Below, in pieces: positions 24,566 through 47,321 of a stretch of 64,000 bases of DNA. The notes under the pieces are model-generated. The model had not been told where the DNA came from. It ran no database searches and worked only from the letters and a program-made list of their open reading frames with translations. Every line of letters begins with the position of its first letter. The stretch's first letter is position 1. The translations under genes were made by a program, and so were the position numbers. The stretch comes from Nitrospirota bacterium (GTDB lineage Bacteria > JACPQY01): NCBI GenBank assembly GCA_016180645.1, contig JACPAV010000010.1, positions 1 through 64,000 of the forward strand, read 5' to 3'.

Positions 24566-25128
24566 GACTTCTTGTTGCCTTCCTCATGGGACTGTGGCTT
24601 GCAGTACCGGTCTGGGCCGAGAGCCGCCCTGTTCGGGCGGTAGACAGCAAGGCCCTCAAGGAAAAGTTCTCCTTCACCACAAGGGCATCGGTGCCCGGAA
24701 TCGAACGGGCAGGGGCGACGTTCGAAACAGCCTTCCAGTACCTCGGCGGCCTCAAAGGCGTGGAAAAGATCGCCCTCCGGACATGGGACCCCATCTACGA
24801 GATCGTTTCCGGCTCGGGGCCGTCCGCCTGGGCGGGAGAAACCGTGATGGATCGCGCGAAAACCAATCTCGTGAAAGGCCGTTCATTCCGGATTCCGGCC
24901 GGCTCGGTCGGCGCGGGGGAGTTCCGCTTCCGTCTCAAGCGGCGTGTGCCTGAAGCGGACGAACCATGGATGACGCTCGAAAAGGAGCGCCGGATCAAGA
25001 CGCTGTCGGTCGATGAAGTCGAGTTGAAGGGGAAGGAACTGGGACTCTACGACGTCGAATTCGAGGTGGAGGTGAAATACTCGGACGGCCGGGCGGAGAA
25101 GACCGCTCTGAATATTGAAGTCCGCTGA
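24562..25128 (+). CDS. Secreted hypothetical protein (188 aa)
   Basis: ATGA overlap with the giant gene stop; signal peptide MRLLVAFLMGLWLAVPVWA. Confidence 0.8.
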   Translation: MRLLVAFLMGLWLAVPVWAESRPVRAVDSKALKEKFSFTTRASVPGIERAGATFETAFQYLGGLKGVEKIALRTWDPIYEIVSGSGPSAWAGETVMDRAKTNLVKGRSFRIPAGSVGAGEFRFRLKRRVPEADEPWMTLEKERRIKTLSVDEVELKGKELGLYDVEFEVEVKYSDGRAEKTALNIEVR

Positions 25129-28100
25129 AGTGCTCCGCTCTGCGTCATTCCTCGCCCTGCTGTTCACCGTTCACTGTTTTCTCCTCGCTCGCTCCGCCTG
25201 GGCCGTGTGCCCGGACGGCGCGGCAACGACGTGCTACTACGTAAACGATTGCTGTACGAGGAATGATGTCTATACGTACGCAGCGGATGCGGACATGGCT
25301 ACCGGGGATGACACACTGGCGTGCGCCTCTTACGAGAGTACGGCGACCCCGGCCCGAAGTATTCGCGAGATCATCACGAGTTGTCCTCTGGCGGCCAACA
25401 CTCGTATTTTTGTCGACACAGGATTCTATCTCAGCCGCCAATACACCGTGGACTGTTCGGTCGTGGATACGGCCAACGCCTGCGAGCTGGGCGGCGCCGA
25501 TCCCGCCGGCGTGGCGCCCTTCAATGATGCAGGAGCCGCGGGAAACATCCTCATTCAAGTGCCGAATATCGCCATCATCGGCGTCCCTTTCCCCGGCGGA
25601 ACCGTGGTGGACGGTCACGGCGCCACCGGCGGCGGCTCGGCTCAAACCAATGTTTTCTACATCGATGGTCCCGGCGGCGCGGACAGCGTGCGAATCCAGA
25701 ACATCGACATACCCCACGGCCAGCGAGGGATCTTCATCGACGATGCCGACAATAACATGATCGAAGGCGTCCTTTCACGGGACCATACAGGGGGGCCGCA
25801 GACCGGCATCGAGGAGCAACTCGGAAGCAACAACTACTTCCGAAACGTCGTCACGGCGAACAACGGGAAAAGGGGTCTCGTTCTCCTGGGGGCCGCAACC
25901 GCGGTTGTGGAGAACGGCACGTTCTACATGGATGGGTCCGCCGGTGGCGACATGAACGTTCTCGTGGGCAGCCAGGGTGGCACGGACTCCAGCAATGTGT
26001 CGATCCGGAACAGCATCTTCTTCATCGAAACCGGAAACAGGAGAGGACTCGTTGTGAACGACGGCAGCCAGGCCGGCTTCCGCAGTAACTTCAACAATTT
26101 CATCCGCGACACGGCAAGTGCGGACTGCGGTCGTTGGAGGGGGACGAACGCGACCACGTTGGCCGACTGGCAGGCTTGCACGGACAACAACAACTGCGGC
26201 GACGGTGCCACCTGCACCGCCGCCACCACCGAGTGCCTGGACGGCGGCGGCGGCGCCGACTCCTGCGATTGCGAAAGCGGCTCCGAACTTCTGGTTGCAA
26301 CCACCCACCCCGTTGACAGCGCGGACCGCGATTTTCACATGAAGGGCCGATTCGGCCATTTCGACGTCGGCGAACCGACGTGGTTCAACACCGCCGATTC
26401 CGACGGGGACGGGATCATCGATGAGGGACCGTTCGAGATCTTCACGTGGGGGGACGAGATCACGTACACCGTCTCGCCCCTCGATACGGGGTGCAACGTG
26501 GCCACCGGAGCCTGCGCCGCGCGAGGGATCGCTCCCACGGGTAATTCGAGCAATTTGGAGCACGAAGGCAACAGCGACCGCCCAAACGCCGAGGGATACG
26601 CCCAGAACTACGGCGCCTCCCGCGGCAGCTTCACGCTTCCACTGACGGCCGCGGTCGTCCAGGGCACGCTGGGCGACCCGGACCTCATCGGGGGAACGCC
26701 GCCCACGCGCACCATGGGGGTGGGGGAGCCCGCGCTCATAGTAACGCTCACCCACACCGGGGGGGCCGCGAACAGCGATACGTTCATCCTCGGCGACATG
26801 GATCCGGCAGACGTGTGCACGGCGCCGGGGACACTGGCCGGCCCCGGGTCCTCTTATCTCCAGATTACGGACGGCGTGGACACGATGGTCGCCTACCTAT
26901 CCGACATGAAAATCGGCGTCCCCACCGACTGGTGCATCGATCCGGGCGAAGCGGCCACGCTCTACTTCCAAGCCTACCGGCCGATGCCGGAGGGTTTCTA
27001 CAGCGGCGACTACTTCGCCACGCTCGTCCTGAGAGGCTGGATGTACATCAAGGACCACTTCAGCATGGCGGGAATCAACACCCTGTCCTTCTTCCGCGAT
27101 TTCATCCAGAACAAGCCCCGGCAGATGCGCGGCACGATCGGAGGGGTCAACAATTTCGGCGCGTTCGTGGACGGCCTCGTCCCCTTTCCGGACCAGGCGG
27201 TTACGACGACCAACAAATGGACCGTTCGCGGAGGCGGCGTGGCCACGGCGGACGTGGCGCGCCCGATCTACGTGCCCGGCTGTTTCGACGCCACCAACGC
27301 CGGCGCCAACGCGAACAACTCGGCCTTCACCATCCGCGCCGTGGACGGAACGGCGGACAACATCGTCCTCAGCGTATGCGAGAATGGGACCGGCGCGTAC
27401 AGCCTCAGCGCGTCCGTCGGAGGGTGCGACGGCGCGAGCGACAGCTACGTCCTCATTCAAGACATGAACGGCGGCACGTATCGCACCTGTTCGGCCACGG
27501 CGGGCGTTGTGACACCGTGCGCGCTGGCCACGACCTGCGCGGCCGGCAGCACCGCGGTGACCTTCAACACGGGCGGAGATATGGGGGCGCTGTGCAACGG
27601 CCCGGCCACCGTCGAACTGGGACTCTACGATGGCGCGGCCGTTACCGTGCGCACGATCCCCGAGCCGGTTTACATTGTGGACAGCGCCACGGCCAACTGC
27701 CGCACCTCCCGCATCCAGTACGTCCAGGGCACCCGGGATATGATTCCGGGGGGGGCGATCCAGGATACCCGTGCGGTGGGCGCCTCATTCGACCCGGAGC
27801 TGTCCATCCGGACGGTCTGGAACGATCGGGGGACGATTCAGGATGATCCGGCCAACACGTTTTCGGGCCTCACGATCATGGATGCCGAGGCCCAGAGCGT
27901 TACCGATGCCTCGCCGCGCACGGTGAGCTCCTACTGCGATCCGACGGGCGACAGTTGCGACGGCGGCGGCGCGAACCCCCTCCAAGTCGGGGAGAGCATG
28001 TACATCACGTTCGACGATGCAACCAACAACGGAGTGGACGACGCAGCGCCCAACATCCCGGCCGGCATGTGCAACGGCACCGCTGAACTGCGGCTCAACG

Positions 28101-28732
28101 TGCGCGGAACGGAAGGGGCGGACGGCGTGGCCCTCAATGAAAATCCCACGGTGGTGGACGGCGTAACCATTTCCGGCGGATACGACTGCATGACCTGCAT
28201 GGCCCAGACCCTCGAAATTTCCGGCGGTGACTCCTCGGCCGGCGACAATCGCGTCACCACCACGGCGGGTACATCCACCACATTGCGCGCTCAACTCTAC
28301 AACACCGGAACGGCCGCCTTCACGATTGCCGCGGGGACCTGTCAGGGGCCTCCTTGCGTGGGCGTGGGTACGGCTTGCTGTACGGCGGGCACATGCCTCA
28401 CGTTCACCGATGGCACGGCCGCCGGCACGTTCTGTGCCCCGGCGAGCAATGCTCGCACGTGTGGAGCCGACGTCTTCGCGTGCGCGGGGGCCGACAACTG
28501 CGCCTTGGGCTGCGCCGTCGGCGCCGGGACGCAGGCGCGGGTGACCTTCGCGGCCACCGTCGTCCCTGCCGTGATCCTGACAACCGAGCCGCCCAGCCCC
28601 TACACGCCGACGATCGTCATGACCGGGAGCCTGAACGAGACCTGCGACCCGGACGACATCGATGTGGATCCGGCATCCACGGGCATCGGCGACAAAGTCA
28701 CCGAATCCGGCTGGATCGAAATCGAACGGTAG
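25115..28732 (+). CDS. Secreted Cys-rich protein with right-handed parallel beta-helix domain (1,205 aa)
   Basis: Signal peptide ending SAWA; beta-helix-type repeats (VRIQNIDI, GIFIDDADNNMIEG, VSIRNSIF); C-terminus VTESGWIEIER. Confidence 0.85.
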   Translation: MKSAEVLRSASFLALLFTVHCFLLARSAWAVCPDGAATTCYYVNDCCTRNDVYTYAADADMATGDDTLACASYESTATPARSIREIITSCPLAANTRIFVDTGFYLSRQYTVDCSVVDTANACELGGADPAGVAPFNDAGAAGNILIQVPNIAIIGVPFPGGTVVDGHGATGGGSAQTNVFYIDGPGGADSVRIQNIDIPHGQRGIFIDDADNNMIEGVLSRDHTGGPQTGIEEQLGSNNYFRNVVTANNGKRGLVLLGAATAVVENGTFYMDGSAGGDMNVLVGSQGGTDSSNVSIRNSIFFIETGNRRGLVVNDGSQAGFRSNFNNFIRDTASADCGRWRGTNATTLADWQACTDNNNCGDGATCTAATTECLDGGGGADSCDCESGSELLVATTHPVDSADRDFHMKGRFGHFDVGEPTWFNTADSDGDGIIDEGPFEIFTWGDEITYTVSPLDTGCNVATGACAARGIAPTGNSSNLEHEGNSDRPNAEGYAQNYGASRGSFTLPLTAAVVQGTLGDPDLIGGTPPTRTMGVGEPALIVTLTHTGGAANSDTFILGDMDPADVCTAPGTLAGPGSSYLQITDGVDTMVAYLSDMKIGVPTDWCIDPGEAATLYFQAYRPMPEGFYSGDYFATLVLRGWMYIKDHFSMAGINTLSFFRDFIQNKPRQMRGTIGGVNNFGAFVDGLVPFPDQAVTTTNKWTVRGGGVATADVARPIYVPGCFDATNAGANANNSAFTIRAVDGTADNIVLSVCENGTGAYSLSASVGGCDGASDSYVLIQDMNGGTYRTCSATAGVVTPCALATTCAAGSTAVTFNTGGDMGALCNGPATVELGLYDGAAVTVRTIPEPVYIVDSATANCRTSRIQYVQGTRDMIPGGAIQDTRAVGASFDPELSIRTVWNDRGTIQDDPANTFSGLTIMDAEAQSVTDASPRTVSSYCDPTGDSCDGGGANPLQVGESMYITFDDATNNGVDDAAPNIPAGMCNGTAELRLNVRGTEGADGVALNENPTVVDGVTISGGYDCMTCMAQTLEISGGDSSAGDNRVTTTAGTSTTLRAQLYNTGTAAFTIAAGTCQGPPCVGVGTACCTAGTCLTFTDGTAAGTFCAPASNARTCGADVFACAGADNCALGCAVGAGTQARVTFAATVVPAVILTTEPPSPYTPTIVMTGSLNETCDPDDIDVDPASTGIGDKVTESGWIEIER

Positions 28733-28824: not shown

Positions 28825-28854
28825 TTGACACATGACTATACACGTGTCTATACT
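28825..28854 (+). promoter_or_regulatory. Sigma70-type promoter of TA operon with CTATAC direct repeats (putative operator)
   Basis: TTGACA(28825)-N18-TATACT(28849); ATG follows 6 nt later; CTATAC at 28836 and 28848. Confidence 0.7.
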
Positions 28855-28860
28855 TGTATC

Positions 28861-29163
28861 ATGCAAAAGGTAAACGCCCTTCAACTCAGGCAGTCTCTAG
28901 GCAAGATTTTGAGAAAGCTGGAGAAGACCGGCGAGCCCATCCTGGTCGAGAAGAATCGCGAGCCCAAGGCGGTGCTCGTGACGGTGAAGGATTTCAAAGA
29001 ACGCTATCTGGACTTGCCCAGGCCCTCGCTCGAAGAGCGAACTCGAATCGTGGAGCGAATTGATGAACTGGCCAAAAGGGTGGCCCCGGAAATCGAGCCG
29101 ACCATACCCGGCGTGAACGATATCGTGACGCTTATCCGGCAAATGCGGGGTCCCCTTCGCTGA
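28861..29163 (+). CDS. Phd/YefM-family antitoxin
   Basis: MQKVNALQLRQSLGKILRKLEKTGEPILVEKNREPKAVLV is a typical Phd fold N-terminus; lies upstream of a PIN gene. Confidence 0.85.
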   Translation: MQKVNALQLRQSLGKILRKLEKTGEPILVEKNREPKAVLVTVKDFKERYLDLPRPSLEERTRIVERIDELAKRVAPEIEPTIPGVNDIVTLIRQMRGPLR

Positions 29164-29576
29164 GAATCGTTCTGGATTCCTCGGTGGCTGTCGCTTGGTT
29201 CGTGAGGACCGGGGAGCCTTGGGTGGAACCGGCTCTGAAATGCAGGGAGCGGATACGATTGGGGACGGACACCGCCATCGTCCCGGAGCTCTTCTTCTTT
29301 GAGATGGTGGCCGTCTTGTGTCGCAAACTGAAAGCGCCGGAACCTGTCGCGGGCGCGCTTCGAGAATTGGATAGCTTCGTGCGGCTAAGATTCGCGCTGG
29401 ATACGGCCTTGGGCGATCTGGCCGTGGGGCTGTCCATCGCCCACGGGCTGAGCGGATATGATGCCGCCTATGTGGCTCTTGCAAGGCTGACTGAGAGTCT
29501 GTGGATCACGGCGGACCGGAAAGCGCATGAGCGTGTGGCGGCGCTAGGGCTGTCGCGGCTGGTCGGGCCGCCGTGA
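29160..29576 (+). CDS. VapC/PIN-domain toxin (probable CTG start)
   Basis: LRIVLDSSVAVAWF...PELFFFE...LSGYDAAYVALA...WITADRK; CTGA overlap with the antitoxin stop. Confidence 0.85.
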   Translation: MRIVLDSSVAVAWFVRTGEPWVEPALKCRERIRLGTDTAIVPELFFFEMVAVLCRKLKAPEPVAGALRELDSFVRLRFALDTALGDLAVGLSIAHGLSGYDAAYVALARLTESLWITADRKAHERVAALGLSRLVGPP

Positions 29577-29613
29577 TGAGGGAGCATCCAAAAGATGCTC
29601 CCCTACGAGTCAC

Positions 29614-30162
29614 TCAGTCCACCGTCGTGCGAATCCGGCGCTCGGCGAGGATTCGCCCTGAATTTCCAAGTCGCCGGCCCACCGAATCGATCGTGCGCTT
29701 GGTGCAGGATTCTGAATCTCCGCCATCCGCATCGACAAATTCGGTGTCGGTGACGCTGATGTAGGCCGTCCCGTTCGGAAGCTGCACTTGGCAAAGGGTC
29801 GGCTTGGCGGTAAGGGAGGACCCCGCGGCCTCGTGACAATCCGGAGTCTCGCCGGGTTGGCCCCAATCGCAGTCCGATTCGAGATTGTGCACGGCCCATG
29901 CCACCCCGGCCTCGGCGATGTAGAGCGCCTCCCCCGAATAGAGCTGCCTCAGGCTGGCCTCCTGCTCGGTCGTCGTGACGCGATAGAGCAGAAGCCCGAT
30001 CGCCGAAATGGCGATGAGGATGAAGAGGGTGGTGATGAGGTTGATGCCTCTGCTGCCAAGAGTTCCTGGTTCCTGGTTCCTGGTTCCTGGTTGCGGAGAG
30101 AGTGTCTCCTTCTTGTTCCTTCCAGGAACGAGGAACTTGCCACCAGGAACTTCTTGAATCAT
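29614..30162 (-). CDS. Minor pilin, PilX/MshP/GspK-like
   Basis: G/INLITTLFILIAISAIGL without Glu5, then EALYIAEAGVAWA; ATGA overlap with the upstream gene; repeat-derived leader. Confidence 0.8.
   Translation of the reverse strand: MIQEVPGGKFLVPGRNKKETLSPQPGTRNQEPGTLGSRGINLITTLFILIAISAIGLLLYRVTTTEQEASLRQLYSGEALYIAEAGVAWAVHNLESDCDWGQPGETPDCHEAAGSSLTAKPTLCQVQLPNGTAYISVTDTEFVDADGGDSESCTKRTIDSVGRRLGNSGRILAERRIRTTVD
30062..30152. repeat. 91-bp palindromic element, copy 1 (GTTCCTG arm / spacer / CAGGAAC arm)
   Basis: 88/91 identical to 30772-30862. Confidence 0.95.
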
Positions 30163-30869
30163 CGCTCCGCCAAATCCCTCGGAAAGACGCTCGTTCGGAG
30201 CGTGACGTTGCGCAGGGGGTCCGTGGTGCTCGTCCCGCGGCGAAGCTGGAGCTCGATCTGGACCCGCCAGATGAAACACATGTCGGCGGCGGCCAGCGCC
30301 CCGTCTGGAATCTGGGTCCCATTGTAGCGATAGTATTCGAATAGGTCCGAGTTGACCACGTTCCGGGCAAGGGCTTCCCACGAGGTGCAGGCGTCGCAGG
30401 CGACGGCGCCGACCGCCGCGGCGGTGCCCCGCTCGAGGGTCGTGCCGTTCTTGCGGTAACACACGCGGGGAGTGTCGGGGAGGTTTGAGCGGAACTCGAA
30501 CTGGTCGTCCTTTGCGCAGAGAACGTCGGTCTCGGGCGCGCTGGTGGCACAGCCCGCGGGAACGGGGAGGGTGTTGTCGGAGTCCGAAAGCATCCGGATA
30601 TCCCGCGTCATCTTCTCCAATGCCTCCATCCCCTCCTTCACCATGTCGCGCCGCTCGGCCTGCGCGAGCCCGCCGCGGATGCCTTGGGAAACGATCAGTC
30701 CGAGCACGCCGGAGAGGGCGATCGCGAGGACGATGACGAGCACGAGTTCCAGCAAGGTGAAACCGGAAAAGGTTCCTGGTTCCGGGTTCCTGGTTCCGGG
30801 TTGAGGAGAGAGTGTCTCCTTCTTGTTCCTTCCAGGAACGAGGAACTTGCCACCAGGAACTTTCTTCAC
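30159..30869 (-). CDS. Minor pilin, PilW/MshO/GspJ-like
   Basis: G/FTLLELVLVIVL...ALEKMTRDIR; GTG start in a GTGA overlap. Confidence 0.85.
   Translation of the reverse strand: MKKVPGGKFLVPGRNKKETLSPQPGTRNPEPGTFSGFTLLELVLVIVLAIALSGVLGLIVSQGIRGGLAQAERRDMVKEGMEALEKMTRDIRMLSDSDNTLPVPAGCATSAPETDVLCAKDDQFEFRSNLPDTPRVCYRKNGTTLERGTAAAVGAVACDACTSWEALARNVVNSDLFEYYRYNGTQIPDGALAAADMCFIWRVQIELQLRRGTSTTDPLRNVTLRTSVFPRDLAER
30772..30862. repeat. 91-bp palindromic element, copy 2
   Basis: Near-identical to 30062-30152; encodes the prepilin leader. Confidence 0.95.
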
Positions 30870-31621
30870 CGGTTGACCACCATCGTCGTCAGATCGATGT
30901 AGGCCTGGTCCTTGGTCGTCCCGCCCCACGAGATCCGGACCGAGATGTACTTGAGATCGGCGTTGCCGGTGCCGGGGAAAGTGGACGACGAGTAGGTGGT
31001 GCCGTCGGAGGCGGGATAGCAGGTGCCGAAACATTGCCCGCTGCATGTCCCGTATCCTTTTCCGGACGTGTAGCAGACGGTGACGCGCTCGCGGAAATCG
31101 GAATAGTAGGAAATCGTCGTGCACGTGTTGTCGGCGATCAGGCCGACCCGATCCGTCCCCCCTCCCCCAAGGGGTGGGCAGCCGTCGATTTCGCTGTCCA
31201 TGCCGTCGTAGTCATCGATATCGGTAAAGGGGAGGGACAGGGCGCCGCCGCCGTCGCGCGACTTGTTTGTTTCAGGACCGAGTCCCATCGCATCCGTCAC
31301 CGGACTCGTGCACGTGCAGTAGGTCCCGACGGCCGGGCAGGTGTCCGGCGGCGGACAGTCCACTTGCGCCGACGTTGCCGAGATGTAGTTGTCCCACTTG
31401 TGCGAGAGGATTTCCTCCATGAGGTCTTGGCCCAGGGCGTAGGCTCGATTGTAGCTCTCCACCTGAACGCTGAGTTTCTTGCTCTGCCATATCGGGCGGA
31501 GGGCGACCACGAGGCCGACGGTGAGGAGGACGATCACCACGACCAATTCGATTAGAGTGACCCCTGAAAAGGTTCCTGGTTCCTGGTTCCTGGTTTCGGG
31601 TCCCTGGGCTTTTGACGACAT
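30866..31621 (-). CDS. Minor pilin, PilV/MshD/GspI-like
   Basis: G/VTLIELVVVIVL; LGQDLMEEILS and FTDIDDYDG resemble MshD-type motifs. Confidence 0.85.
   Translation of the reverse strand: MSSKAQGPETRNQEPGTFSGVTLIELVVVIVLLTVGLVVALRPIWQSKKLSVQVESYNRAYALGQDLMEEILSHKWDNYISATSAQVDCPPPDTCPAVGTYCTCTSPVTDAMGLGPETNKSRDGGGALSLPFTDIDDYDGMDSEIDGCPPLGGGGTDRVGLIADNTCTTISYYSDFRERVTVCYTSGKGYGTCSGQCFGTCYPASDGTTYSSSTFPGTGNADLKYISVRISWGGTTKDQAYIDLTTMVVNR
31571..31607. repeat. (GGTTCCT)n heptamer array in prepilin leader
   Basis: ggttcct x3 plus degenerate units; reads RNQEPGT on the minus strand. Confidence 0.9.
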
Positions 31622-31680
31622 CTCGATGACATTGTAGCATGGTGTGTGCCATAGAAAACTTACTGGAGGGATCGGGGAGC

Positions 31681-32658
31681 ATGAAAGACATCGAAGAATC
31701 GGAAGTTTTCAAGCGGGCTCACACGCTCGTCCTTGAAGTGTACCGACTGACCGAGCGGTTCCCAAACCGGGAAATGTTCGGCATCTCCTCTCAACTGCGG
31801 AGGGCCGCCCTCTCCGTGACTTCCAATCTGGTTGAGGGATCACAACGGATGAACCAAGCGGAGTACCGCCACTTTGTGAGCCTCAGCAAGGGATCGGCCG
31901 CGGAGGCCCGATACCAAACGCGTGTGGCCTACGAACTTGGGTATCTTTTGGAAAAGGATTTCAGAGAACTGTCCGCTTCCTACGAAAGAGTCATCCGCAT
32001 GCTCAGGGGTCTCTACGCGTCGCTCGATGGAAAGCGGCCTTCCAGGAACCAGGAACCAGGGCCTCTCTTGCCCACTAGGAACCAGGAACTAGGAACTAGG
32101 AACTCCGGAGCGTTTACGCTCTTGGAAGTCATCGTCGCCCTCGTCCTCATGGCGGTGCTGGCGGGTATTGCCATCAGCCGGATGTCGGGGTCGAGCCGGG
32201 TGAAACTGGAGCAGGCGGCGCGAATGATGTCGCACGACCTGAACTTCGCGCGCGACTGGGCCATGACGCACGCGACATCCGTGCGGGTGATCTTCGACCG
32301 GTCGACGGAAATCTACGGCGCGTCGTACTGGAGCGTGGATGCCGGCGCGGGAGCCGGCGCCTGGGAATGGATCTCGTCCTACAGCCTCGGGAGCGCCTTG
32401 ACGGTGGATATGGACGAACAGTTCGAAGGGGTGGACATCGCGGACTTCTTCATCGACGGCGCTTCGGTTCCGACGGCCAATCCTCCGGACGGCGTGGGCT
32501 ACACCAGCTTTGCGCTCAGCAGCCTCGGAACGCCGCGGCATGCGTACAACGGGACGCCCCTGACGTCCATGAATCGAGTTACGCTTTCCTTTGGAAGCTA
32601 CACCGAGTACGTGTCGATCCAGCCGTACTCCGGCTACATCTACGTCTGCTCGCAATAG
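31681..32658 (+). CDS. Fusion: four-helix-bundle (IVP/Avd-like) domain + prepilin (FimU/MshC/GspH-like)
   Basis: SD GGGGAG before ATG 31681. FPNREMFGISSQLRRAALSVTSNLVEG...GSAAEARYQ...ELGYL matches four-helix-bundle motifs. The frame continues without a stop through a repeat linker into GA/FTLLEVIVALVLMAVLAGIA. Confidence 0.9.
   Translation: MKDIEESEVFKRAHTLVLEVYRLTERFPNREMFGISSQLRRAALSVTSNLVEGSQRMNQAEYRHFVSLSKGSAAEARYQTRVAYELGYLLEKDFRELSASYERVIRMLRGLYASLDGKRPSRNQEPGPLLPTRNQELGTRNSGAFTLLEVIVALVLMAVLAGIAISRMSGSSRVKLEQAARMMSHDLNFARDWAMTHATSVRVIFDRSTEIYGASYWSVDAGAGAGAWEWISSYSLGSALTVDMDEQFEGVDIADFFIDGASVPTANPPDGVGYTSFALSSLGTPRHAYNGTPLTSMNRVTLSFGSYTEYVSIQPYSGYIYVCSQ
32042..32103. repeat. (CCAGGAA/CTAGGAA)n heptamer arrays linking the four-helix bundle and pilin domains
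   Basis: Units start at 32042, 32049, 32056 and 32075, 32082, 32089, 32096. Confidence 0.9.
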
Positions 32659-32663
32659 AATCG

Positions 32664-32698
32664 TCGAACGTCGCGCGGCGAACGTCGAACGCCAAGAA
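32664..32698. repeat. Degenerate (TCGAACG)n heptamer array between the fusion gene and truD
   Basis: tcgaacg tcgcgcg gcgaacg tcgaacg ccaagaa. Confidence 0.7.
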
Positions 32699-32700
32699 CC

Positions 32701-33876
32701 ATGAAGATCAAAGTCAAGAGCGATGATTTCGTTGTCGAAGAAGTCCTGTCTGCGCATCCCTTGTCCGATCGGGGCGACCACGTTTGGTACAAGTTGAGAA
32801 AGAAGGGCCTGACCACGCCGGAAGCGGTGGGAATCCTGGCGCGGCGATGGAGTGTCCCGCCTTCGAAGTTCCACTACGCGGGACTCAAGGACAAGTATGC
32901 GATCACGACTCAGACCCTCTCGGTTGAAGGTCCTTCGGGCGATGGTCGGCGCGAGAAAGGTGACGACCTATCCGCCGAACCGCTGGGCCGGTCGGACCGT
33001 CCGGTCGGACCCGACCTGCTCGAATCGAATCGGTTCACGGTGGTGGTGCGGGATATCCCGCCTCTGGAGACTGAAAAGATCGCCGCGGCCTTCATGGAGG
33101 TCCTCAATTTCGGGTTTGTAAACTATTTCGGCGAGCAGCGGTTCGGATCGGCGCGCCACGGTCACGGCTTCCTCGCCCGTGAACTGCTGAAAGGGGAACC
33201 TGAAAAAGCCCTGAAACTGTACCTGGCGACGTGGGATCGAAAAGACCGCTCGCGTCTCAAAGCGTTCAAGAAGCATGTGAATGAGAACTGGGGGGACTGG
33301 TCGGCCTGCCTCAAATCCTCCCAGCGATCGACCGAACGAAGCATCATCCATTACTTGAAGGATCACCCACAAGACTTCATGGGCGCGGTAAATCGCATTC
33401 CACGATCACTCCTTTCGATCTTCCTTTCCGCCTATCAAAGCTATCTGTGGAATGAGACCGTGCGGCGCCATCTTTCGGAAGCCTTCGGGGGCGAGGTCCG
33501 CCTGTTCCCCTTCCGAAACGAGCATGTCCACTGGGCCTTCTATCGGATCATGCCGGACGCGGTTTTCGCGCGGCTGGAGGACCTCAACATTCCGCTGATC
33601 GACAAGCGGGTGGTGTACCCCGACGAGTTCATGGAGAAGACTATTTCCGCGCTTCTGGCGGAAGAGGGAGTGGAGCGGAGTCAGTTTGGGCTGAAAGGTA
33701 TTCGGAACGCTTTTTTCAAGTCATCTCCCCGGAAGATTGTGGTTGTCCCGGAAGATTTTGAGATCGACCCCACGGCGACGGACGAAGTCCATGCCGGGAA
33801 AAAGAAAGTCGTCCTACGCTTCTCGCTCCCTCCGGGCAGCTACGCGACAGTGCTTCTTAGACGGCTGGGGGCGTGA
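32701..33876 (+). CDS. truD: tRNA pseudouridine(13) synthase
   Basis: DFVVEE, YAGLKDKYAITTQ, NRFTVVVR, NYFGEQRFG, FSLPPGSYATVLLR. Confidence 0.95.
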   Translation: MKIKVKSDDFVVEEVLSAHPLSDRGDHVWYKLRKKGLTTPEAVGILARRWSVPPSKFHYAGLKDKYAITTQTLSVEGPSGDGRREKGDDLSAEPLGRSDRPVGPDLLESNRFTVVVRDIPPLETEKIAAAFMEVLNFGFVNYFGEQRFGSARHGHGFLARELLKGEPEKALKLYLATWDRKDRSRLKAFKKHVNENWGDWSACLKSSQRSTERSIIHYLKDHPQDFMGAVNRIPRSLLSIFLSAYQSYLWNETVRRHLSEAFGGEVRLFPFRNEHVHWAFYRIMPDAVFARLEDLNIPLIDKRVVYPDEFMEKTISALLAEEGVERSQFGLKGIRNAFFKSSPRKIVVVPEDFEIDPTATDEVHAGKKKVVLRFSLPPGSYATVLLRRLGA

Positions 33877-38989: not shown

Positions 38990-41168
38990 CTTCGTGGCGC
39001 GAGGCGCGTGGCGCGTGGCGCGGGTCCTGGGGTCTTTTCTTTTTACATTCTTATTCACGATTCACGATTCACGACTCACGACTTACGACCCCCACGATGG
39101 GGGAAGTGCCGCGAGAGGGCAGGAGCCCGGAGCGGCCGGCTCACGACTTGCGACTTACGACTTCCGACTCACGACCCCCCCCGCCTGGGCCCAGGACGAA
39201 GATGAGGAGGAACTGGAGGAATTGGACGAGGTGGAAGAGCCTTCCGAACCTGCTCCATCGGCCCCTTCGCCCAAAGCGGAGCCCTCGCCTGGCGGCAAAG
39301 ACAAGACGACGGAGGCCGGTGAAACTCCGGGCGGCGGTGATGAGGAGGCCGATGAGGACGAGGAGTTGGAGGAAGTCGAGGAGGATGCCTCCGGTCGGGC
39401 GAAAACGCCCGCTCCGGTCGGATTGAACGTGGACAGGATTGACTTCAAGAAAGAAGAGGGGTGGGCGCGCATCGTGGTGACCTGCTCGGCCCCCGTCACG
39501 TACCAGACGTCCCAGATCGAGGCGAAGGCGGTGGCTCTCGATATCCAGGGAGCGATGCTTAAGCCGGACCTCCAAAGGATTCTTGACGTCACCGCGTTTC
39601 AGAGCGTGGTGCATGCCATCGTACCGACTCAATTGCAGGGCGCGCCGAATCCAGTGGTTAGGGTCTTGGCCTCTCTGATGCAGCCGGCGGCGTTTCAAGT
39701 CGATGCGAAGGGAAGAACGCTCCTGTTCTCCTTCAAGGAGCCACCGGGAGGGGTCGCGCCCGGGCCGGCCCAACTGGCCGGGGAGATCAACATCACCGAG
39801 GAGTCGTCGGATCGCCGGAAAGTTTTTACGGGTCCCCGGATTTCCCTCGATTTCAAGGAGATCGATATCGACAACGTTCTCCGGCTCCTGGCGGATGTCA
39901 CCGGGATCAACATTGTGGCCGACGATGACGTGCAGGGGAAAATTACCATCAAGCTGAGCGACGTTCCGGCGGACCAGGCGCTGGATGTGGTGCTCGAGAC
40001 GAAGGGGCTTGGGCGCGTGGAGATCGGCGATCGAATCTTCCGGATCGCGCTAAAGACGCGTCTCGCGGAGGAGATGTCGAAGAAGGTGGAGGCCAAGAAA
40101 GCGGAAGAGAAGGCGGAGCCGTTGGTGACGAAAGTAGTGGCGGTGAATTATGCTTCGGCAGCTGAATTCGAAGGATTGATCAAGGACTCCATCCTGACGG
40201 AACGCGGCAAGATCAAGGTCGACACTCGTTCCAACACGATTGTCGTCAAGGATGTGAACAAGGCCGTCGCCGAGGCGATCACCCTTGTTCGTCGGCTGGA
40301 CATCCAGACCCCCCAAGTGCTGATCGACACCAAGATTGTCGAGGCGACCACCAATTTCCTTCGCACCGTCGGCGCCCAACTGGGCGCCACTTTGAATCTG
40401 GATCAGGCGCGGGGGGTGGCGATGGGTCCGGTAACGGCGGCTCAAGTGGGAGGCGCGGGGGTGACTGGGACGACGGTCCCTTCCCTGAACAACAACTTTC
40501 TGGTGGACTTTCCGGCTGGAGAAATCGGCGCCGGTCGGGGCAGTGGGATAGGGCTTTCGCTGGGCACACTGGGAAACTTTGCCACGGTCAACTTCATTCT
40601 GTCGGCACTGAAGGAATCGGGTGAAGGCAGGGTCGTGGCCAGCCCTCGCGTGACCAGCCTGGACAACAAGGAGGCCATGATTCTTCAGGGCGAAGCGATC
40701 CATATCTTGACCGTGACGGCCCAAGGCTCCGCCGTGCAGGAAATCGAGGCGGTGCTCCGTCTTAGGGTCACACCCCACATCACAACGGATGGAAGTGTTT
40801 ATCTCAAGATCAAGCTGGAACGGAACGAAGCCGATTTCAGTCGACTGGTGGCGGGAATCCCCAACATCATCAGGCGTGAGGCCGAAGCGGAGCTTCTCGT
40901 CCGGAACGGCGAAACGGTGGTCATAGGGGGTGTACATACGCGGATCGCGCGGAAGGCGAAATCCGGCGTCCCCATCTTGTCCGACATTCCAATCATCGGT
41001 ATGCTGTTTAGAAACAGTCAGAGAAGGGAGTCGTCGGATGAACTGGTGATGTTCCTGACTCCGCGAGTGCTCAATTTGCAGAATATCGAAGCTGTCGAGA
41101 CCATCGCCGAGCAGTCGGAAGAGGAGGCACTGAAGGAAATGAAGAAAGACGTCAGCATGGCCAGATAG
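38973..41168 (+). CDS. pilQ: Type IV pilus secretin PilQ (acidic linker, AMIN-like domain, secretin core)
   Basis: [66 protein letters not shown]. Confidence 0.95.
38993..39175. repeat. Composite heptamer arrays (CGTGGCG)x4 and (TCACGAY)n in the pilQ signal sequence
   Basis: Left arm 38993-39020; right arms 39055-39088 and 39141-39175. Confidence 0.9.
39085..39146. repeat. 62-bp REP/MITE-like double-hairpin element, copy 1
   Basis: 58/62 identical to 49431-49492; hairpins CCCCC-N5-GGGGG and GGGC-AGGA-GCCC. Confidence 0.9.
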
Positions 41169-43795: not shown

Positions 43796-43893
43796 TCAGC
43801 GGTCGGGGGTCGGCGTTCAGAGGTCCGGAACCAGGAACCAGGAACCAGGAACCAGGAACCAGGAACCAGGAACCAGGAACTAGGAACTAGGAA
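43796..43893. repeat. 14-unit phase-continuous heptamer array (TCRGNGG-like units switching to CCAGGAA)
   Basis: Units start every 7 nt from 43796; 7x CCAGGAA and 2x CTAGGAA at the 3' end. Confidence 0.95.
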
Positions 43894-43917
43894 CCTTCCC
43901 ACGTATACTTTCCAGCC

Positions 43918-45012
43918 ATGCTGAAGGAACGTATCGCCGTGCTCATGAGCGGCGGAGTCGACAGCTCCGTCGCCGCCGCCCTGCTCAAGGAACAGGGACA
44001 TGACCCTATCGGCCTCACCTACAACATCGGTCCCTCGCGAGTTCACGGAATCGCGGGTTCACGGGATCACGGTTCACGCTGCTGCGGCATGGACGACATG
44101 ACCGATGCCGCGACCATCGCATCCCAACTTGGAATTCCCCACTATGTCCTCAATGTCCGGGATTCGTTCGCGCGCGGGGTCATCGGAGATTTCGTCGAGA
44201 GCTACCTGAAGGGCGAAACTCCGCTGCCCTGCGCCCACTGCAACACGCGGGTGAAGTGGGGAGAAATGGCCGATCGGGCCAGGGAGATGGGGGCGAGCCG
44301 CATGGCCACGGGGCACTATGCAAAAGTCGATTGGGATGCGTCGCGAGGCCGGCACGTATTGAAGCGGGCCATGGATCTTGAGAAGGATCAGTCCTACTTT
44401 CTTTTCGGCCTCAGCCAGGAGCAACTTGCGTCCGCGATCTTTCCGCTTGGGGACCTCACCAAGCCCGAAGTTCGTGAGCGCGCCGAGGCGTTGGGGTTGG
44501 TCGTCTCCGACAAGAAGGACAGCCAGGAGCTTTGCTTCGTTTCCTCCGGCCACTACTCCGAAGTCATTGCGCCTCACGCCTCACGCCTCACGCCTCACGC
44601 CGCCGGAGAGATTGTGGATGTCTCCGGCGCCGTCCTCGGCACTCACGACGGCTTCTTCAAATTCACCGTGGGGCAGCGGCGGGGTCTCGGACTGAACGGC
44701 GGACCTTACTACGTGAAATCCATCGATTCCGCCACGAGGAAGGTCGTGGTCGGCAACGCGGATTCCACATTGACCGACAGCCTGACGGCTCGTGATCCCA
44801 ATCTGATCGGCTACGAGTCTTGGGAGTCAGTGGGGAGGGTTCGCGCCCGAGTTCGATACCGGCACAAAGGCGAATGGGGTTCGGTGCGATGGGACGGCCA
44901 AAGACTGAAGGTGGAGTTTGAAAATCCGGTTCGAGCCGTTGCGCCGGGGCAAGCCGTGGTCTTCTACCGCGAGGATGAAATCGTGGGCGGAGCGTGGATC
45001 ACACCGGGATGA
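43918..45012 (+). CDS. mnmA: tRNA 2-thiouridylase
   Basis: MSGGVDSS, TPLPCAHCN, ATGHYA, KDQSYFL, DSQELCF, GQRRGLG, APGQAVVFY. Confidence 0.97.
   Translation: MLKERIAVLMSGGVDSSVAAALLKEQGHDPIGLTYNIGPSRVHGIAGSRDHGSRCCGMDDMTDAATIASQLGIPHYVLNVRDSFARGVIGDFVESYLKGETPLPCAHCNTRVKWGEMADRAREMGASRMATGHYAKVDWDASRGRHVLKRAMDLEKDQSYFLFGLSQEQLASAIFPLGDLTKPEVRERAEALGLVVSDKKDSQELCFVSSGHYSEVIAPHASRLTPHAAGEIVDVSGAVLGTHDGFFKFTVGQRRGLGLNGGPYYVKSIDSATRKVVVGNADSTLTDSLTARDPNLIGYESWESVGRVRARVRYRHKGEWGSVRWDGQRLKVEFENPVRAVAPGQAVVFYREDEIVGGAWITPG
44571..44601. repeat. (TCACGCC)x4 in frame within mnmA
   Basis: Encodes APHASRLTPHA just before GEIVD. Confidence 0.9.
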
Positions 45013-46507: not shown

Positions 46508-47321
46508 AGCGATTGTCCTCAAAGCGACTCCTTTCGGCGAGTCGGACCGTCTGGTCACTCTATTCACGCGCGAGGCCGGTCTTCTTTCGGCCATGGCCAA
46601 GGGTGCGCAACGGAGCCGGAAGCGTTTCGGTGGTACGCTGGACTCTCTCTCGAAAGTGCAGGCGATGGTCCAGTGGCGGAAATCGAATGCGATGCCGCTC
46701 CTCGCGGCGGCATCCCTCGTCGATTTTGGATTGGGCATTCGATCGGATCTGCGGCGTGTGGCCCAGGCTTCCTATATGGGCGAGCTCATTTGGCGTGGTT
46801 CGAAGCCGGGCGTGAGGATGATGGACCTCTACGATGCCTGTTGCCTCGTCCTCGGCCGACTGGCGGCGGAGGGACCGGAGCCGGATACTCTCGCGTGGTT
46901 TCTGCTGAAACTTCAGACCGCCCACGGCTATCGGCCCAAACTCGATGTCTGCTCGATCTGTCAGGGTCCCATCGGGGCGCCCAACGGAAATCGAGGGCCA
47001 CGAACCACGAGCCACGATGAAGTGCCCATGAGCTACAAAAGCGGCGGCGTCGTTTGCTCCCGCTGTGCGGATCGTGCGGAAATCAATATGCAACTCCCCG
47101 TTGGCGCTCTCTCCTGGCTCCAGTCTCTTTCCAATCCCGCCGTCGCTGCTTGTCTCCCGTCGCCTCACGCCTCACCCTTCACGGCTAACGACTTGCGACT
47201 CACGGCTCACGAGCAGCGTGCTGCTCAGCAATTCCTCCACCGTTTCATTCTCTTTCATCTTGAGTTCCAACCCGCCTCATGGCGCTGGTGGCATCGGATC
47301 GTTGAAAGAACCGAGGCCTGA
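46488..47321 (+). CDS. recO: DNA repair protein RecO
   Basis: EAIVLK...GESDRLVTLFTREAG...AKGA; CxxC...CxxC zinc finger. Confidence 0.93.
   Translation: MRNLATEAIVLKATPFGESDRLVTLFTREAGLLSAMAKGAQRSRKRFGGTLDSLSKVQAMVQWRKSNAMPLLAAASLVDFGLGIRSDLRRVAQASYMGELIWRGSKPGVRMMDLYDACCLVLGRLAAEGPEPDTLAWFLLKLQTAHGYRPKLDVCSICQGPIGAPNGNRGPRTTSHDEVPMSYKSGGVVCSRCADRAEINMQLPVGALSWLQSLSNPAVAACLPSPHASPFTANDLRLTAHEQRAAQQFLHRFILFHLEFQPASWRWWHRIVERTEA
46991..47213. repeat. Two in-frame heptamer arrays in recO (CCACGAN at 46991-47018; TCACG-type x7 at 47165-47213)
   Basis: 7-nt phase conserved; encode GPRTTSHD and PHASPFTANDLRLTAHE. Confidence 0.85.

Follow-up and report, generated by a model that had tools for sequence, protein, structure and literature searches.

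A four-helix-bundle domain in frame with a minor pilin of a Nitrospirota bacterium: a putative intervening-sequence-type cassette in a prepilin leader

How can a complete four-helix-bundle (4HB) domain stand where a minor pilin should have its leader peptide, and would such a fusion be made and matured? The question is raised by an open reading frame (ORF) in a 64,000-nucleotide (nt) stretch of DNA from a Nitrospirota bacterium (C54:1-64000, here called the window), whose genome (G000) amounts to 4.7 Mb in 65 contigs with 60.8% G+C. The frame lies at 31639-32658 on the forward strand, has 339 codons and is stop-free until 32658; the database version of the protein has 325 amino acids (aa) and begins at ATG 31681. 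We found that the segment joining the two domains is one arm of a cassette of the intervening sequence (IVS) type. We consider it somewhat probable that the fusion is made and processed, the cassette being tolerated because prepilin peptidase takes away the leader in which it sits.

The two halves of the frame were assigned by profile searches. Residues 19-123 of the ORF (31693-32007, +) matched positions 1-105 of the 106 positions of PF05635 (23S_rRNA_IVP; E = 2.5e-32, 111.7 bits against a cut-off of 33.8; 114.8 bits in the profile search of the genome contigs), and TIGR02436 ('four helix bundle protein') scored 105.2 bits against a cut-off of 24. By these profile scores, the fused protein is a member of PF05635/TIGR02436. 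Further on, residues 154-179 matched PF07963 (N_methyl; 27.2 bits, cut-off 21.2), and the prepilin profile TIGR02532 reached 20 bits (cut-off 16.3). The mature minor pilin, which is GspH/FimU-like and was recognized by the N_methyl profile, starts with FTLLE and occupies 32113-32658 (+) including its stop codon. Phe+1 is at 32113, Glu is at +5, and the residue at -1 is Ala (gcg, 32110-32112). Judged from its sequence, the pilin part bears a bona fide class III signal motif.

The initial annotation had described a complete 4HB running in frame through a heptamer-encoded linker into GA/FTLLE, and the open ORF, the full-length PF05635 match and the PF07963 score above cut-off agree with this. It had also pointed to Ala, rather than Gly, at -1 as a caveat, and to cleavage on the cytoplasmic side. 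The Ala is indeed there, and in the portion of a review that was available (PMC10191384) prepilin leaders are described as ending in Gly or Ala and as cleaved on the cytoplasmic side. The topology is thus compatible with a prepilin, and the genome contains a prepilin peptidase gene (Peptidase_A24, C3:304696-305025, 75.8 bits). The short N-terminal leader typical of prepilins was not found: the motif begins at residue 154 of 339, and the leader comprises 144 codons (31681-32112, +), namely the 4HB (S23p) domain, an array-encoded linker and the Ala at -1, unless an in-frame TTG at 32068-32070 (+) is used instead.

An AlphaFold2 model, based on a shallow alignment and extending up to the pilin head, predicted four helices (residues 8-24, 35-54, 59-85 and 91-115), with a predicted local distance difference test (pLDDT) value of 78-93 per 10-residue block across residues 1-110, which is consistent with a four-helix-bundle fold. 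The linker (119-145) was predicted to be unstructured (pLDDT <50) and to be followed by another helix (147-166). The pilin was harder to place. Matches to GspH, ComGD and Verru_Chthon cassette protein D were below cut-off and confined to the N-terminal 60-70 residues of the pilin, and TIGR01708 scored 31.9 bits against the 80 needed for GspH/FimU membership, over the N-terminal 63 residues only. An atlas search pointed to GspH-type pilin clusters (score 0.84), which we take as a lead only.

The domains meet at tandem repeats, where an artefact of assembly or gene calling might be suspected; we find this hardly credible. The window was compared with Logan per-run contigs of four runs (X1-X4), all from one study, which may be the source of this DNA. 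As such an artefact would have it, the contigs of X4 end at the array (32074-32105), where a single joint of low support is also found. But X1, X2 and X3 each yielded contigs that cover 31400-32700 with no other letters and no gaps, so that neither a stop nor an indel separates the domains on rechecking, and the same fusion architecture is present in other organisms, as described below. Other array loci are the most likely source of the X4 joint itself, which runs from 31595 to 32077 (two contigs, side 25, 13 other letters between), and it was not used.

What, then, is the linker? Tandem Repeats Finder located a heptamer array of 5.3 copies of GGTTCCT at 31571-31607 (+), 5' of the 4HB gene, and two arrays 3' of it, CCAGGAA (2.7 copies, 32042-32060) and ACTAGGA (4.4 copies, 32074-32104). 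The latter two, of the AGGAACC type, form a 3' arm (32042-32104, +) that is translated as the linker, and the former is a 5' arm with this heptamer in the opposite orientation. The arms are inverted repeats of one another: 31572-31595 matches 32080-32103 (24 nt, 92%), and 31575-31593 matches 32042-32060 (19 nt, 100%). In both the minimum free energy and the centroid fold of 31560-32115 the arms pair into a stem of ~27 bp, which would place the ORF in the loop if the whole is co-transcribed. A sigma-70-like promoter match (TTGACG-17-TAGCAT, 31612-31640, +) lies inside the cassette, 5' of the 4HB start. The cassette sits between two divergent minor-pilin genes, and each pilin leader is encoded by one arm; read on the minus strand, the 5' arm supplies part of the leader codons of the divergent pilin, here called pilin (a).

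The 'heptamer-encoded linker' can be identified as the 3' arm of a cassette of the IVS type, because the flanking inverted heptamer layout recurs at other 4HB loci and matches the anatomy of the IVS of Coxiella. Were the arrays open in all frames, the fusion would be trivial, but this is not so: the second array of the 3' arm holds TAG in two of its three frames, and the pilin frame alone is open. A search of Rfam across 29500-33000 gave no credible family, its two matches both being far below the gathering scores.

The Coxiella burnetii element, as presented in the accessible part of PMC4990558, is an IVS of the 23S rRNA that carries an S23p ORF and is excised by RNase III. Its ends are inverted repeats that pair into a 28-bp stem, and 5' of the ORF it has tandem heptameric repeats, the number of which varies among strains; Leptospira and Brucella are also named in that paper as carriers of S23p IVS. 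Our cassette is like it in having a PF05635 protein, stem-forming terminal inverted repeats and heptamers beside the ORF, and the host product would likewise be freed of the insert after synthesis. It is unlike it in that the host is a protein-coding gene and not an rRNA, the insert lying between two pilin genes, in that the arms are themselves heptamer arrays and are translated, and in that removal is predicted to be performed by prepilin peptidase on the protein and not by RNase III on the RNA. Of the features that define an IVS, the enclosing stem-forming inverted repeats are thus present, whereas the position in an rRNA helix is not.

To establish how general this layout is, we analyzed 80 4HB loci (L016-L095) in GTDB genomes of many phyla, which had been drawn by similarity to the 4HB part only. 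Reverse-complementary heptamer arrays were found on both sides of the 4HB gene in 36 of the 80 loci, compared to 0 of 140 control positions located 1.5 kb away in the same loci. Perfect arrays (at least three copies) were ~15 times denser within 200 nt of the 4HB gene than in the rest of the flanking sequence (21 in 60.5 kb versus 7 in 333 kb). Period 7 was dominant near 4HB genes; period 8 was seen three times versus once, and periods 5, 6, 9 and 10 gave none. In the two-armed loci the 4HB stop codon was located just 5' of the 3' arm (21/36) or inside it (15/36). The two-armed layout was also present at C40:63301-63860 of the host genome and at three loci of G001, the sole genome of the same family. 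Heptamer repeats that have hitherto been unexplained are reported from Xanthomonas, Nostoc and Geobacter (PMC2700814, PMC4692102, both available in part), and 4HB-linked cassettes may explain part of them.

Three relatives were particularly informative about how a cassette and its host gene are joined. The metagenome locus L096 (1345-4182) contains a pilus operon with two pilin genes, each fused to a near-identical 4HB, and with an ATPase-like ORF and a repeat-rich ORF downstream; L098 and L099 have the same double fusion. In L096, too, the linker is a 3' arm, here of an inverted repeat of 65 nt. Since linkers of this type have no in-frame ATG, GTG or TTG between the last 4HB helix and the cleavage site, these pilins would be made only as fusions or from a start inside the helix. 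Locus L100 (1506-4226) carries the operon of L096, with ~82-92% nucleotide identity over the aligned flanks. Here a different 120-aa 4HB with its own stop, its ORF flanked by a 75-nt inverted repeat, precedes both pilins without being fused to them, and the pilin ATGs overlap the 4HB end, so that leaders of up to ~41-49 residues correspond to the 3' arm. Homology between the two loci resumes at the codons of the mature pilin N-terminus.

Within each of the two strains the two 4HB copies are near-identical, of type A in L096 and of an unrelated type B in L100. At the sequence level, this points to copying of the 4HB between the two pilin sites and to exchange of the whole module between strains. 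The comparison of L096 and L100 suggests that the 4HB together with its arms is exchanged as a unit that supplies the leader. It also suggests that fusion is not needed for the pilin, since the L100 pilins sit with an unfused 4HB.

The third relative is from G001 (C79:32277-34007; L124:3278-5008, -), where a 576-aa ORF holds a 4HB in frame with a protein that has a lipobox-like signal. The hydrophobic core of this signal is encoded by the 3' array of the cassette, and no in-frame ATG, GTG or TTG is found between the 4HB and the signal protein. The ORF has a second 4HB gene next to it and lies among the genes of an F-type conjugation cluster (TrbI-like, TraV, TraC).

The fusion with a pilin had appeared unique in a single-sequence word search, which gave only the protein itself and P0002. 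This was overturned by an exhaustive HMMER search of 1.84 billion representatives, which found seven more proteins running from a 4HB into a prepilin helix among its best 150 matches (P0031, P0047, P0065, P0087, P0090, P0126 and P0066, the last one truncated). Four more, P0152, P0153 (Flexistipes sp.), P0154 and P0155 (Ca. Peregrinibacteria), came from a profile search, each with both PF05635 and PF07963; P0153 is annotated in NCBI merely as 'four helix bundle protein [Flexistipes sp.]'. Judged by these domain matches, the 4HB-pilin fusion is present in at least nine further lineages. The initial annotation had allowed that it might be peculiar to this assembly, and this is not the case. The pilin parts of different fusions are unrelated beyond the N-terminal helix, which suggests separate joins. 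Of the 40 relatives searched together with the host genome, only G001 is of the same family, and in none of them did this query give a match spanning both halves or a pilin orthologue.

The cluster of P0047 includes Deltaproteobacteria records from metagenome-assembled genomes (MAGs), and its member P0181 occurs on 22 contigs. The linker in this cluster shows an indel of seven residues, equal to 21 nt or three heptamers, by which the frame is kept. A near-identical short unfused form of the P0181 4HB was not found among 8000 candidates scored, the best being 67% identical. Two apparent further fusions were rejected: a match to residue 210 in L071 turned out to have mutL-like sequence downstream, and a 301-residue open frame in G190 is an upstream extension through arrays.

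Building on the observed anatomy, layout, recurrence and exchange, and following the established topology of prepilins for translation, insertion and cleavage, we propose the following course of events. The cassette would have lodged in the common 5' region of the two divergent minor-pilin genes. Its 3' arm is stop-free in the 4HB frame, which happens to be that of the pilin too. Ribosomes starting at ATG 31681 would cross the arm into the pilin, and the prepilin so produced would have a cytoplasmic leader of 144 residues. The hydrophobic helix of the pilin would then insert as an anchor with the 4HB remaining cytoplasmic, and prepilin peptidase would cut after Ala144, yielding a normal pilin and a free 4HB plus linker. 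By analogy with the rRNA element, we read the arrangement as tolerated rather than purpose-built, because a removable leader would be a safe place, like the RNase III-excised helix in 23S rRNA. The lipobox case of G001, a second cleavable signal, fits this rule of the removable insert. The pilin may also be started at TTG 32068.

Long prepilin leaders as such are known. The consulted portion of the review (PMC10191384) calls leaders 'variable in length' or 'very long' for T4b and Streptococcus sanguinis pilins. The present protein is like these in its hydrophilic leader ending in Gly/Ala, its hydrophobic helix, its Glu5 and its predicted cytoplasmic cleavage. It is unlike them in that its leader of 144 residues is predicted to hold a folded domain, whereas that portion of the review mentions no domain. 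Nor did we find, in the literature as far as its text was available, a link of S23p/PF05635 to pilins or a domain-sized prepilin leader.

A serious, if rather unlikely, alternative is that two genes are accidentally read as one. The pilin would then be made from TTG 32068 only, and the 4HB would be untranslated or its run-on product an inconsequential minor by-product. The in-frame TTG that the initial annotation had noted is present, and it would give the pilin a 15-residue leader like that of pilin (a), with identical array-encoded residues. Between codon 96 (counted from ATG 31681) and the cleavage site it is joined by just one other in-frame ATG, GTG or TTG codon, ATG 31999, which falls within the last 4HB helix. 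But the 18 nt 5' of TTG 32068 contain only a weak AGGG/AGGA Shine-Dalgarno-like stretch, whereas ATG 31681 has GGAGG 11 nt upstream and the promoter-like site. Moreover, a ribosome starting at ATG 31681 meets no stop before 32658, and the 4HB domain is intact end to end. Unfused neighbours of 4HB and pilin do exist, in L100 and in L061, an Omnitrophota MAG and the only one of the 80 loci with a pilin directly 3' of the 4HB. There are also true fusions elsewhere, since the downstream proteins of L096, L098 and G001 have no in-frame start of their own.

Several observations speak for the two-gene alternative, or otherwise weigh against a fusion that is made and processed. The S23p protein of Coxiella is apparently not synthesized in vivo according to the accessible part of PMC4990558, so the 4HB here may also go untranslated. 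TTG 32068 could yield an ordinary pilin, and the promoter match is weak evidence (one site against 0.4 expected in shuffled sequences). No RNA run was among those listed for this DNA. In unselected samples the fusion is seldom met: all of the 80 4HB ORFs stop without running on (median length 118, maximum 134 codons), and although 167 of 301 Omnitrophota genomes have 4HB matches, none of the 150 listed out of 437 matches extends into the pilin part of the profile. The fused examples, on the other hand, come from protein searches that favour forms bearing a pilin helix. Given adjacency, a chance in-frame join would be expected in ~1/3 of cases. Finally, in the literature available in part we found no case in which prepilin peptidase processes a leader longer than 100 residues.

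The neighbouring pilins of the cluster carry related arrays. Pilin (a) (30866-31621, -) starts at ATG 31621 inside the cassette and obtains a 20-residue leader through the 5' arm. The start codon (GTG) of pilin (b) (30159-30869, -) overlaps the stop of (a), and an ORF-less inverted array pair lies in the 36-residue leader of (b). Likewise, the ATG of the PilX-like pilin (c) (29614-30162, -; PilX_N E = 8.6e-4, below cut-off) overlaps the stop of (b), and its leader of ~47 residues contains a second ORF-less inverted array pair. Both pairs, each in the leader of a translationally coupled pilin gene, consist of the heptamer of the cassette and enclose a loop of 27 nt only. The hairpins have folding energies of -39.6 kcal/mol (z -3.4) in the leader of (b) (30768-30866, -) and -45.9 kcal/mol (z -5.4) in that of (c) (30058-30160, -). 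These array pairs look like ORF-less versions of the cassette. Their loops contain AAGGAG, with no in-frame start codon after it.

Candidate leaders of the other prepilins of the genome are ~5-14 residues long, compared to 20-36 where the leader bears arrays. Two prepilins at C25:36190 and C25:36876 (+) have candidate leaders of ~31 residues, rich in Ser, Arg and Thr, and these long leaders may also be array-encoded.

The closest solved relative of the 4HB by sequence is XCC0516 of Xanthomonas campestris (PDB 2GSC, 2gsc_A; E = 3.3e-19), which differs in being a free-standing protein of 128 residues without a pilin. In the available text of PMC4990558, the Xanthomonas S23p protein is described as a homopentameric toroid. 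PADLOC gave no match for our 4HB protein. We also compared it to the Avd proteins of diversity-generating retroelements (DGR), with which it shares the fold superfamily by weak matches only: bAvd (PF22296) gave E = 0.0016 and 19.4 bits against 40, and NF033474 (DivGenRetAVD) gave 22.8 bits against 80, so it does not qualify as an Avd. No reverse transcriptase was detected among the 30 neighbouring ORFs scanned. Avd relatives of the 4HB family work with nucleic acids in retroelements.

This last point bears on a function that the initial annotation had proposed for the fusion, namely that a membrane-tethered nucleic-acid-binding 4HB is set free by prepilin peptidase and acts on array-bearing pilin and pilQ mRNAs. 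We regard such a regulated release as improbable. It would agree with the tight linkage of the 4HB family and heptamer arrays across phyla, with the activity of Avd relatives, distant as these are by profile score, with the single array type borne by all four pilins of the cluster, and with the near-identical 4HB on both pilins of L096. But the association of 4HB and arrays is explained in cis by the arms of the cassette, L100 manages with an unfused 4HB, and most 4HB genes are free-standing. Arrays of the AGGAAC type were found outside the pilin cluster at 12 of 18 places and are therefore not pilin-specific, and the arrays at ~38993-39175, at the start of the pilQ ORF, consist of different repeat units.

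Heptamer arrays are in fact widespread in this genome, with ~407 tandem arrays of many unit types, of which the AAATCTC and ACTCATC types are the commonest. Those in the window include arrays at 38993-39175, 43827-43895, 44570-44601 and 47161-47211. Many arrays of the genome are intergenic, among them one of 9.9 copies of GGAACCA just 5' of an mnmA-like gene (ORF 43918-45009, with tRNA methyltransferase domains). At C65:2300-4000 and C47:5400-7330, array-derived peptide repeats occur, apparently in frame, in long ORFs resembling surface proteins, and inverted heptamer arrays flank them. Another 4HB gene of the genome (C42:680-979) is located directly 3' of an ORF whose C-terminal peptide may resemble that of a type I restriction specificity subunit.

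Tandem repeats in a leader-coding sequence also raise the possibility of phase variation, as in the opa genes of Neisseria, where repeats drive phase variation within the leader-coding sequence. Slippage of the 7-nt arrays would switch the pilin on and off, or between fused and unfused, and the fused form seen here would be one phase. We consider this decidedly improbable. The locus is like opa in having short tandem repeats, with a unit length not divisible by three, in a region that encodes a cleaved N-terminal peptide, and all four pilins have arrays within the sequence that encodes their leaders. Linkers differ in length among relatives, and the heptamer number varies among Coxiella strains (PMC4990558, as far as available). 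Unlike opa, however, the locus shows no length heterogeneity in contigs, and its arrays are inverted pairs around a gene. The three per-run assemblies agree in length, though contigs hide minor length variants. Variant units break up the second array of the 3' arm. The variants found elsewhere, such as the 21-nt indel, leave the frame intact, and no near-identical out-of-frame 4HB was found for P0181.

The remaining surroundings of the cluster are as follows. A single ORF of 8176 codons covers the first 24.5 kb of the window (35-24565, +) and is followed by a 1205-aa protein with a beta-helix match (25115-28732). A PhdYeFM antitoxin/PIN-domain toxin pair (28825-29573, +) adjoins the minor-pilin cluster.

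Beyond the preferred reading of a tolerated cassette in a removable leader, the observations can be joined into a wider one, which as a whole we hold to be quite unlikely. S23p/heptamer cassettes would be a widespread IVS-like class that colonizes cleaved signals of envelope proteins, with rRNA helices, prepilin leaders here and in at least nine further lineages, and the lipobox signal of G001 as hosts. The 4HB would be made 1:1 with the pilin, released, and act as a nucleic-acid-binding oligomer on array stems, so that pilin maturation feeds back on expression or on array propagation. Its targets would be its own array stems and the ORF-less ones in the neighbouring pilin leaders. In addition, one 4HB carried by two minor pilins, as in L096, could bring them together before assembly.

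A folded 13-kDa domain as a prepilin leader would far exceed what is known for class III signal peptides. Its recurrence in several phyla, and on two pilins in one operon, provides a natural test of the cargo that prepilin peptidase accepts in its substrates. To our knowledge, the S23p/four-helix-bundle family, although very large, has no known function. The cassette gives it a concrete anatomy, which ties the rRNA IVS to thousands of free-standing copies and to the heptamer arrays of many genomes. If the 4HB has no role, the locus is a clean case of neutral gene fusion, rendered harmless because the leader is cleaved off. Taken together, our results suggest a general rule, according to which cassettes of this kind survive at sites from which the host takes them out after synthesis, be it in RNase III-cut rRNA helices or in cleaved signal peptides.

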